From assembly GCF_003334785.1 (NCBI RefSeq), contig NZ_QOWV01000011.1: 64,000 bases of DNA, one strand, 5' to 3'. The DNA comes from Escherichia coli. Lineage in GTDB: Bacteria; Pseudomonadota; Gammaproteobacteria; Enterobacterales; Enterobacteriaceae. The notes under the pieces were generated by a model, which was not told the DNA's origin, did no database searches, and saw only the letters and a program-made list of their open reading frames with translations. A program made the translations under genes and the position numbers. Positions 40,100 to 41,329 of this stretch are shown piece by piece. Numbering within the stretch: position 1 is the stretch's first letter; each line of letters opens with the position of its first letter.

Positions 40100-41329
40100 T
40101 TATGGTGCAGGATGGTTGTTGTTTTTAAATGATTGTTCTTTATTGGTATTTGTTGTCATGGGATGACAGGGTGTCAGAATATGTAGGTGGAGGATTTGGT
40201 GGAAAGGATGTGCAGTGGCATGTAACAGAGACATGCCTCTGCGCCTGAGAAGTGCCACAATATGGACGAGCAATACAAGCCATGAATACAGACGACGCTG
40301 GCGGGGTATCTGACGAGCTGTATTGTGCAGATTGCTCCTGAGCTGGATGATACCCACTGTCTCCTGTTGTCTTTCCAGACGAATTTTTTCTTCAAGCTGA
40401 TGGATTTTCTCCAGAATCGTTTCCCGGTTTGCAGCCTGCTCTTCAGACTCGCATGATGGCACTGGCACTGGCACTGGCACTGGCACTGGCACTGGCGCGG
40501 TTGTAGGTTCTATTGGCCTCTGGGCTTCTTTCAGTAAACTCAGATGCTCAGGCGTAAAATCAATCAGTGCTTGCAGGGAAGACCAGCCATATTTTTTACC
40601 CAACTGAGATGCTTTAAAGGCAATACCCTGGTATTGAAATGAAAATCCACTCATTTTACCCGTAGTGGCGATATTGGGTTTGCAGGTCACTCCTTCCTGT
40701 TCCAGTAAGCGAACAAAGGTTAGTAAATCGGGATGGTGTGTTAATGCATTGTCGAGCAGGGCCTGCAACAGTGACTTAGGGCAGGGAGCTGCTGTGCGTT
40801 CTGCCATCATCAGTTCATTACGGGAAGGCTTCCTTTTATCCTGGCGGCTACTGCCGGTTACACCCGTAGTTTCGGTGAGGCCGTGTACTCTCTCCAGCTC
40901 ACTGATAATCCGTGTGCCGATAAGATTTTCATTTTTCCCCAGGTACAGTTTTCCACCGACCATGTTAATACGACTTGCAATGATATGAATATGCTGCCCA
41001 TCCGGATCATCGTGCATGATATAGCAGCGAAGATGGGTGTCAGTGAAGCCCATTCGGGCCATATAATCGTCAGCGAATGCTGCCCACTGTCTGTTTGACA
41101 GTTTCTCACCCTTTGGCAGGCGAAGTGAATTATGCCAGACAGGTTTGGCGACATCGGGACGCAGCAGTCGGGTGCCTTCAAATTCACTTATAAGCTCAGC
41201 AGCAGTGCTACCCGTCATGTTGCCACCGATGACATAAGGCGTGATTTTGTGGTGAGAACCTGACTTCAGGCTATAAATAACCACACCTGTGAATTGTTTA
41301 CCCCTTTTTATTTTCTGCATGCCTTTCAT
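40100..41329 (-). CDS. Mobilisation relaxase (MobA/MobL-type)
   Basis: 409-aa ORF with relaxase histidine motif HDDPDGQHIHII; overlaps the stop of the upstream MobC-like gene; contains a (Pro-Val)n tract. Confidence 0.75.
   Translation of the reverse strand: MKGMQKIKRGKQFTGVVIYSLKSGSHHKITPYVIGGNMTGSTAAELISEFEGTRLLRPDVAKPVWHNSLRLPKGEKLSNRQWAAFADDYMARMGFTDTHLRCYIMHDDPDGQHIHIIASRINMVGGKLYLGKNENLIGTRIISELERVHGLTETTGVTGSSRQDKRKPSRNELMMAERTAAPCPKSLLQALLDNALTHHPDLLTFVRLLEQEGVTCKPNIATTGKMSGFSFQYQGIAFKASQLGKKYGWSSLQALIDFTPEHLSLLKEAQRPIEPTTAPVPVPVPVPVPVPSCESEEQAANRETILEKIHQLEEKIRLERQQETVGIIQLRSNLHNTARQIPRQRRLYSWLVLLVHIVALLRRRGMSLLHATAHPFHQILHLHILTPCHPMTTNTNKEQSFKNNNHPAP
40458..40496. repeat. Hexanucleotide microsatellite (GGCACT)x6.5 inside relaxase gene
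   Basis: ggcactggcactggcactggcactggcactggcactggc, encoding PVPVPVPVPVPVP on the minus strand. Confidence 0.9.

Follow-up and report, generated by a model that had tools for sequence, protein, structure and literature searches.

In E. coli O157:H7, mutations of 6-bp VNTRs involve complete repeat units and arise at approximately 4e-5 to 2e-3 per generation, and low mutation rates have been found for alleles of up to 13 units (PMC3777172). The contingency loci of Neisseria and Haemophilus share with the tract described here a hypermutable simple repeat within a gene and slippage as the presumed source of its variation. At the protein level, X-Pro spacers are known from the (Glu-Pro)n/(Lys-Pro)n region of TonB and from the Ala/Pro-rich linkers of pyruvate dehydrogenase E2. 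Searches of the literature on the repeat unit and on relaxase VNTRs found no description of the present tract, and those on proline-rich tandem-repeat linkers in relaxases found nothing pertinent.

Here we analyse a hexanucleotide array within a relaxase gene of E. coli, located in a window of 64 kb (the whole 64,000-nucleotide stretch of DNA under study, to which all positions refer unless another locus is named). The array is very probably a slippage-driven coding VNTR in the relaxase gene of an ssrA-adjacent island, with variation in spacer length that is most likely near-neutral.

The repeat array, its gene and the ssrA island

The array occupies positions 40457-40496 of the minus strand and consists, in gene sense, of (CCAGTG)6 followed by CCA; read on the plus strand, it is TGGCAC repeated 6.7 times. 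The preliminary description had reported six and a half GGCACT units at 40458-40496, and the plus strand there reads (GGCACT)6 followed by GGC, exactly as described. Tandem Repeats Finder assigned to 40457-40496 a period of 6, 6.7 copies, 100% matches, 0 indels and a score of 80, and in the 64-kb window this is the best short-period array and the only one with more than 2.6 copies. The maximum run of lag-6 identity in the window is 34 and ends at 40495. In the shuffled-sequence control (n = 200), the mean maximum lag-6 run was 7.8 and the highest was 12, and at the other lags from 1 to 11 no identity run in the window exceeded 9. The head-to-tail array of this short unit is far beyond chance expectation, with nothing comparable in shuffled sequence.

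The gene-sense codons are ACC GCG (CCA GTG)6 CCA TCA TGC, which specify T-A-(P-V)6-P-S-C. The tract had also been correctly described as in frame and encoding Pro-Val: (Pro-Val)6-Pro constitutes residues 279-291 of the minus-strand ORF, and the ORF list of the window contains no plus-strand ORF over the tract.

This ORF (40100..41329, minus strand, 409 aa) is, by the ORF list, Pfam and the RefSeq annotation, a relaxase gene of the MobA/VirD2 (HUH) type. The naming of the host gene as a relaxase is borne out by a match to the Pfam Relaxase family PF03432 (E 3.5e-22, residues 32-151 of the 409-aa ORF), by the RefSeq label 'relaxase/mobilization nuclease domain-containing protein' and by the conservation of the catalytic Tyr18 and the His105/His112/His114 triad. 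In a 60-sequence alignment of the relaxase, Y18 and H114 do not vary, and conservation reaches at least 90% at H105 and H112; the histidines belong to the metal-binding motif H105-DDPDGQ-H112-I-H114. The conservation of these residues provides the expected relaxase catalytic set, and the family profile, together with the N-terminal Tyr and the His-rich motif, points to the MobA/VirD2 (HUH) type. The protein scored 52.6 bits against the TraI/MobA(P) equivalog NF041893 (cut-off 250), 57.5 bits against MobB NF041325 (cut-off 400) and 41.7 bits against MbpB NF041420 (cut-off 400), all far below the curated thresholds; it is related to the NCBIfam TraI/MobA(P), MobB and MbpB families but is not a member of these named equivalogs. 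No sequence-level match of the relaxase to solved structures was found, and its best PDB fold match, the MobA minimal relaxase domain 2ns6, is weak (Foldseek E 0.012, probability 0.97). Given the conserved active-site residues and the intact ORFs across genera, the relaxase is probably in use.

The protein is divided into three parts, all encoded on the minus strand: the N-terminal relaxase domain (residues 1-269; 40523..41329), supported by distant homology, the AlphaFold2 (AF2) model and the conserved Y18, H105, H112 and H114; an unstructured inter-domain segment containing the PV tract (residues 270-295; 40445..40522), delimited by the AF2 model; and a lineage-specific C-terminal tail (residues 296-409; 40100..40444), which has no Pfam domain and is absent from distant relatives, and for which the AF2 model was again used. 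In this model, built from the 60-sequence alignment with a mean pLDDT of 78.9, the N-terminal domain is predicted with pLDDT mostly above 90 over residues 7-269. Residues 270-295 lack secondary structure, with pLDDT values of 61, 48 and 52 in 10-residue blocks and below 50 at residues 286-293. The tail is predicted to form a long helix (296-337), a hydrophobic helix (342-362) and a disordered end, with moderate confidence (pLDDT 55-77) and a shallow alignment in this part. Homology to 150 distant representatives, whose total lengths range from 119 to 1062 aa, ends at about residues 250-265. The earlier proposal that the tract encodes a linker is thus supported by the model, in which a predicted coil at 270-295 follows the end of distant homology and lies between the domain with pLDDT above 90 and helix 296-337. 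On this prediction, the PV tract is best described as part of an inter-domain spacer.

A 135-aa ORF (41326..41733, minus strand), taken from the ORF list, overlaps the relaxase start by 4 bp and stands in the position of a relaxosome accessory gene of the MobC/NikA type. Its best Pfam match, NikA-like, is weak (E 0.14), and no NCBIfam or PHROG match was found for it; plasmid homologues of the relaxase have mobC at the corresponding place. The tmRNA gene ssrA, located by ARAGORN at 54114..54476 on the minus strand, is the chromosomal site adjoining the island. An identical annotated locus begins with ssrA, an integrase gene, a recombinase gene and two ParB-family genes, followed by variable cargo and IS elements, and continues with an ankyrin-repeat gene, the 135-aa ORF, the relaxase gene, small hypothetical genes and ypjA. 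Given this gene order from ssrA and the integrase to ypjA and the presence of ssrA in the window, the relaxase is carried by an integrated, presumably mobilizable island at the tmRNA site of E. coli chromosomes.

A plasmid origin of the relaxase gene was rejected, as megablast against 72,556 plasmids gave no near match and the E. coli copies are all chromosomal. In a tblastn search of the plasmids, the one full-length relative lies on a 3.6-kb Salmonella contig (70% identity) and the others match the N-terminal 60% only; these plasmid relatives are MobA/MobC-type modules. The assignment of the island to the PIME elements was likewise rejected, as those integrate at guaA and carry different modules.

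Upstream of the relaxase, the minus strand carries an inverted repeat at 41832-41860, in the intergenic region that separates the 135-aa ORF from the ankyrin-repeat gene. Its stem is 13 bp long (GGGTATACTATTT-GTC-AAATGGTATACCT) and a T-run comes after it; the element could be a terminator or an oriT inverted repeat. A stretch of about 1 kb without genes, located downstream of the mobilization module, harbors a 49-bp tandem repeat (37696-37824; 2.6 copies, 76% match) with the conserved core ...AAATACGCTTCGCGCA..., adjoined by an AT-rich 18-bp tandem repeat (38177-38215); the 49-bp repeats look like iterons or regulator-binding sites. The island cargo differs between strains (11947-14957 in locus L011; 1-6701 in locus L013) and various IS elements are present; in some strains, the cargo contains a defence-like pair of genes, one with a RelA/SpoT domain and one with a NACHT domain. 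Immediately upstream of the island integrase gene, at the place that the ssrA side occupies in other strains, Z1323CEC0007 has a P4-like satellite module (psu, ogr/delta, primase-helicase); the fetched stretch does not extend to ssrA itself. This arrangement suggests tandem occupancy of the ssrA site.

Copy number and tract purity among isolates

A megablast search with the relaxase gene detected it in 134 of 5,426 complete E. coli genomes (~2.5%), always on the chromosome. The 59 copies with at least 97.5% identity, which we treated as the near-identical set, comprise nine length alleles with 4 to 13 units. The gene measures 1218 bp in 1 genome (4 units), 1230 bp, the length in the window, in 7 (6 units), 1236 bp in 17 (7 units), 1242 bp in 11 (8 units), 1248 bp in 6 (9 units), 1254 bp in 3 (10 units), 1260 bp in 6 (11 units), 1266 bp in 4 (12 units) and 1272 bp in 4 (13 units). 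All nine lengths differ from the 1230 bp of the window by multiples of 6, and the Nei/Simpson diversity of tract length in the 59 genomes is 0.85. One locus was fetched per length class, the copy number in the unfetched genomes being taken from the matched length. The fetched loci (n = 4 and 6-13 units) differ solely in the number of CCAGTG units and have identical flanks, and each of these alleles is annotated as an intact full-length ORF. In a larger protein collection, proteins with 3, 4 or 5 units and otherwise identical to that of the window each occur on 50 to 326 contigs, so that the range on the near-identical background is 3 to 13 units when draft assemblies are included.

The comparison of isolates, proposed in the preliminary description, therefore contradicted an invariant copy number, with nine alleles among 59 genomes. 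Its expectation of changes in multiples of 6 bp was also upheld, since the copy number at the orthologous locus shifts in whole units (4-13, or 3-13 with drafts) and the indels of the fetched loci are all confined to the array.

The 5-unit allele (protein P0123, 326 contigs), common in draft genomes but found in none of the 59 complete RefSeq genomes of the near-identical set, probably derives from a single clone that has been sequenced many times. Several partial relaxase entries, among them P0132 (277 aa) and P0135 (272 aa), stop 1-6 residues before the PV tract, suggesting that certain contigs of draft assemblies end at or close to the repeat, though the tract is shorter than a read.

Lengths of 6, 7, 8, 9, 10 and 11 units are all found with 0 SNPs in the 2,194 bp around the tract. 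No SNP separates two pig-farm isolates, Res13-Lact-ER02-39 (7 units) and Res13-Lact-PER12-33-A (8 units), over 41 kb, and 2 SNPs separate Z1323CEC0007 (12 units) from Z1323CEC0011 (13 units) over 38 kb. The tract thus mutates faster than its surroundings, with one-unit steps in two near-clonal pairs. The three laboratory sublines of MRE162 are uniform at 7 units, which speaks against an extreme rate; 9 units are shared by both Z217 isolates and 7 by five Res13 strains. Given the range of lengths at zero SNPs, the one-unit steps between clonal isolates and the uniformity of the sublines, the tract changes on epidemiological, not day-to-day, time scales. This tempo agrees with that measured for the 6-bp VNTRs of O157:H7 (PMC3777172).

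The sole other difference between the two Res13 isolates in the 41 kb is a 15-bp indel (CCATCTACATAGCTA) directly beside an IS2 copy, at 15031 in locus L011 versus 15046 in locus L012.

The diverged E. coli alleles of the relaxase gene (~89-93% nucleotide identity) fall into two groups, with a pure or an interrupted tract. In a lineage with pure QQQT(VP)n, 11 and 13 units are present in the fetched genomes and 4-5 in other homologues. Another diverged lineage has 7 perfect units plus degenerate units. The interrupted tracts have the form VPAPVPLTVPMP..., and the length of such alleles is uniform within a set of 15 genomes and within another of 9, which come from a variety of hosts and countries. 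Length thus varies in pure but not in interrupted tracts, which is the pattern predicted by slipped-strand mispairing. Inside the array, a GTG-to-ATG change has occurred, and the new ATG-CCA unit has itself expanded, giving 1 to 5 Pro-Met units. The derived (ATG-CCA)n arrays were seen in loci L017 and L018 (E. coli E24377A type) and in proteins P0047 and P0056, and each such array constitutes a second microsatellite that arose within the first as the latter decayed. A higher-order VPVPVPEP duplication was observed in protein P0097.

Explanations for the variation in spacer length

Homologues with 83-99% identity occur in Escherichia, Salmonella, Klebsiella, Enterobacter, Citrobacter, Raoultella and Cronobacter, and are 399-413 aa long, with nearly all lengths stepping by two residues. 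Intact homologues span (PV)1 to (PV)13, the single PV linker being found in homologues from Enterobacter hormaechei and Klebsiella quasipneumoniae. In a Salmonella homologue with 70% amino-acid identity, (VP)11 is encoded by the same GTG CCA codons as here. An X-Pro repeat as a general feature of the relaxase clade was rejected: among the 141 distant representatives of at least 330 aa (out of 150), such a repeat lies near the boundary in only 2, and a Pro-rich window of any kind in 9. The PV array is thus a lineage-specific insertion at the domain boundary, not a general property of the clade.

The pattern of variation points to slippage as the mechanism. Replication slippage on the perfect (CCA-GTG)n array would add or remove whole 6-bp units, and the reading frame would always be kept because 6 is a multiple of 3. 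The sole effect on the product would be a longer or shorter Pro-Val dipeptide spacer, predicted to join the conserved N-terminal nicking domain to the lineage-specific helical C-terminal tail. Since intact homologues range from (PV)1 to (PV)13, linker length seems to be weakly constrained, and its variation is therefore most likely near-neutral, making the tract a fast-evolving marker rather than a switch.

An adaptive role would be the main competitor of this explanation: the Pro-Val array could be a selected, length-adjustable semi-rigid spacer, through which slippage re-tunes the reach from the nicking domain to a tail that possibly docks on the membrane or a coupling protein, with potential consequences for mobilization efficiency or helper compatibility. 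The position of the tract precisely at the domain boundary is consistent with such a role, as are the retention of a pure, identically encoded array at this position by several lineages and by the 70%-identity Salmonella homologue, and the conserved active site and intact ORFs across genera of a protein that is probably in use. However, intact homologues down to (PV)1 suggest that the spacer is dispensable, the tract has degenerated in several lineages to interrupted forms of invariant length, and the 2 of 141 distant relatives with an X-Pro repeat at the boundary argue against a general requirement. As slippage alone can maintain purity, the (PV)1 alleles, the decayed alleles and homogenisation by slippage explain the data without selection, and we regard the tuning of the spacer as unlikely. 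A related proposal, that selection keeps the array as an evolvable spacer whose length variants alter the reach of the tail to a helper coupling protein or secretion channel, is unlikely as well; if true, island lineages could rapidly re-tune their mobilization efficiency or switch helper conjugative elements.

The near-neutral slippage of a coding VNTR also accounts better for the data than three further explanations. Long-read consensus can mis-size short repeats, and the clonal pairs differ by single units, one of which could be an assembly error. However, the nine length classes come from dozens of independent assemblies made in different laboratories, in exact multiples of 6 and with perfect units; related isolates agree internally (7 units in five Res13 and three MRE162, 9 in both Z217); the tracts, at 24-78 bp, are shorter than a short read; and the 3-, 4- and 5-unit protein variants each recur on 50 to 326 contigs. 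It is thus highly improbable that a sequencing or assembly artefact underlies the differences in copy number. Equally hard to credit is that the array acts as DNA or RNA, in the form of sigma-54-like motifs, a protein-binding array or a hairpin. The plus-strand unit TGGCAC does equal the sigma-54 -24 hexamer, but no TTGC -12 element stands at the required spacing, the sequence past the last unit being TGGCGCGGTTGT, and the sigma-54 promoter reading was rejected for this lack. A hairpin or cruciform was rejected as well, since folding of the single strand is not superior to that of shuffled sequence (z = +0.78), and no promoter-like or terminator-like site was found at the tract. Moreover, a plus-strand transcript from the tract would run antisense to the relaxase, and expansion also occurs in derived units such as ATGCCA, in which the motif is lost. 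Finally, a hypermutable simple repeat in a coding sequence recalls the ON/OFF phase variation of contingency loci, but the 6-bp unit never shifts the frame and the fetched alleles with 4-13 units are all intact ORFs, which excludes a frame-shifting phase switch and makes a contingency switch of the relaxase extremely improbable.

Comparison with known systems

As a marker, the tract is highly diverse, with at least nine alleles and a diversity of about 0.85 among carriers, and it could serve to tell apart very closely related E. coli carriers of the ssrA island. The same variability is a warning that length differences in the relaxase gene should not be taken as distinct gene variants. The natural series from (PV)1 to (PV)13 in nearly identical backgrounds offers material for the question of how linker length relates to transfer, and the tract illustrates the birth, decay and re-birth of microsatellites inside a gene, for example in the derived (ATG-CCA)n arrays.

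The 6-bp VNTRs of E. coli MLVA typing (CVN014, CVN015, CVN016 and CVN017 of the generic scheme; O157 TR3, TR4, TR7, O157-3 and O157-10) likewise consist of perfect hexanucleotide units, and share with the relaxase tract whole-unit changes, many alleles and differences between close isolates. The relaxase tract differs from them in being a separate locus; it lies on an accessory island that only ~2.5% of complete E. coli genomes possess, and is therefore unusable as a universal marker. The 10-locus generic E. coli MLVA scheme, GECM-10, has 20 primers, which we took from PMC8143711. With up to 3 mismatches allowed, 0 of these 20 primers match the window, a result that applies to the generic scheme only; the identity of the tract with a locus of the generic scheme was accordingly rejected.

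The tract also differs from the contingency loci of Neisseria and Haemophilus in that its unit is a multiple of three, so that protein length varies and expression is not turned on and off. Like MobA of R1162/RSF1010, the relaxase combines an N-terminal HUH nicking domain with a non-homologous C-terminal region, but its tail is short (~115 aa), predicted to be helical and lacks a primase domain. With the linkers of TonB and of the E2 lipoyl domains, the PV tract would have in common an alternating X-Pro sequence that is expected to be extended and to separate functional parts, and that may tolerate changes in length. In contrast to these spacers, its partner residue is Val, its host is a mobilization relaxase and its conformation is a prediction. 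It is also encoded by a pure DNA microsatellite, and is consequently polymorphic within a species. The tract is an ordinary kind of coding microsatellite, of use chiefly for marking strains, and leaves current understanding unchallenged.
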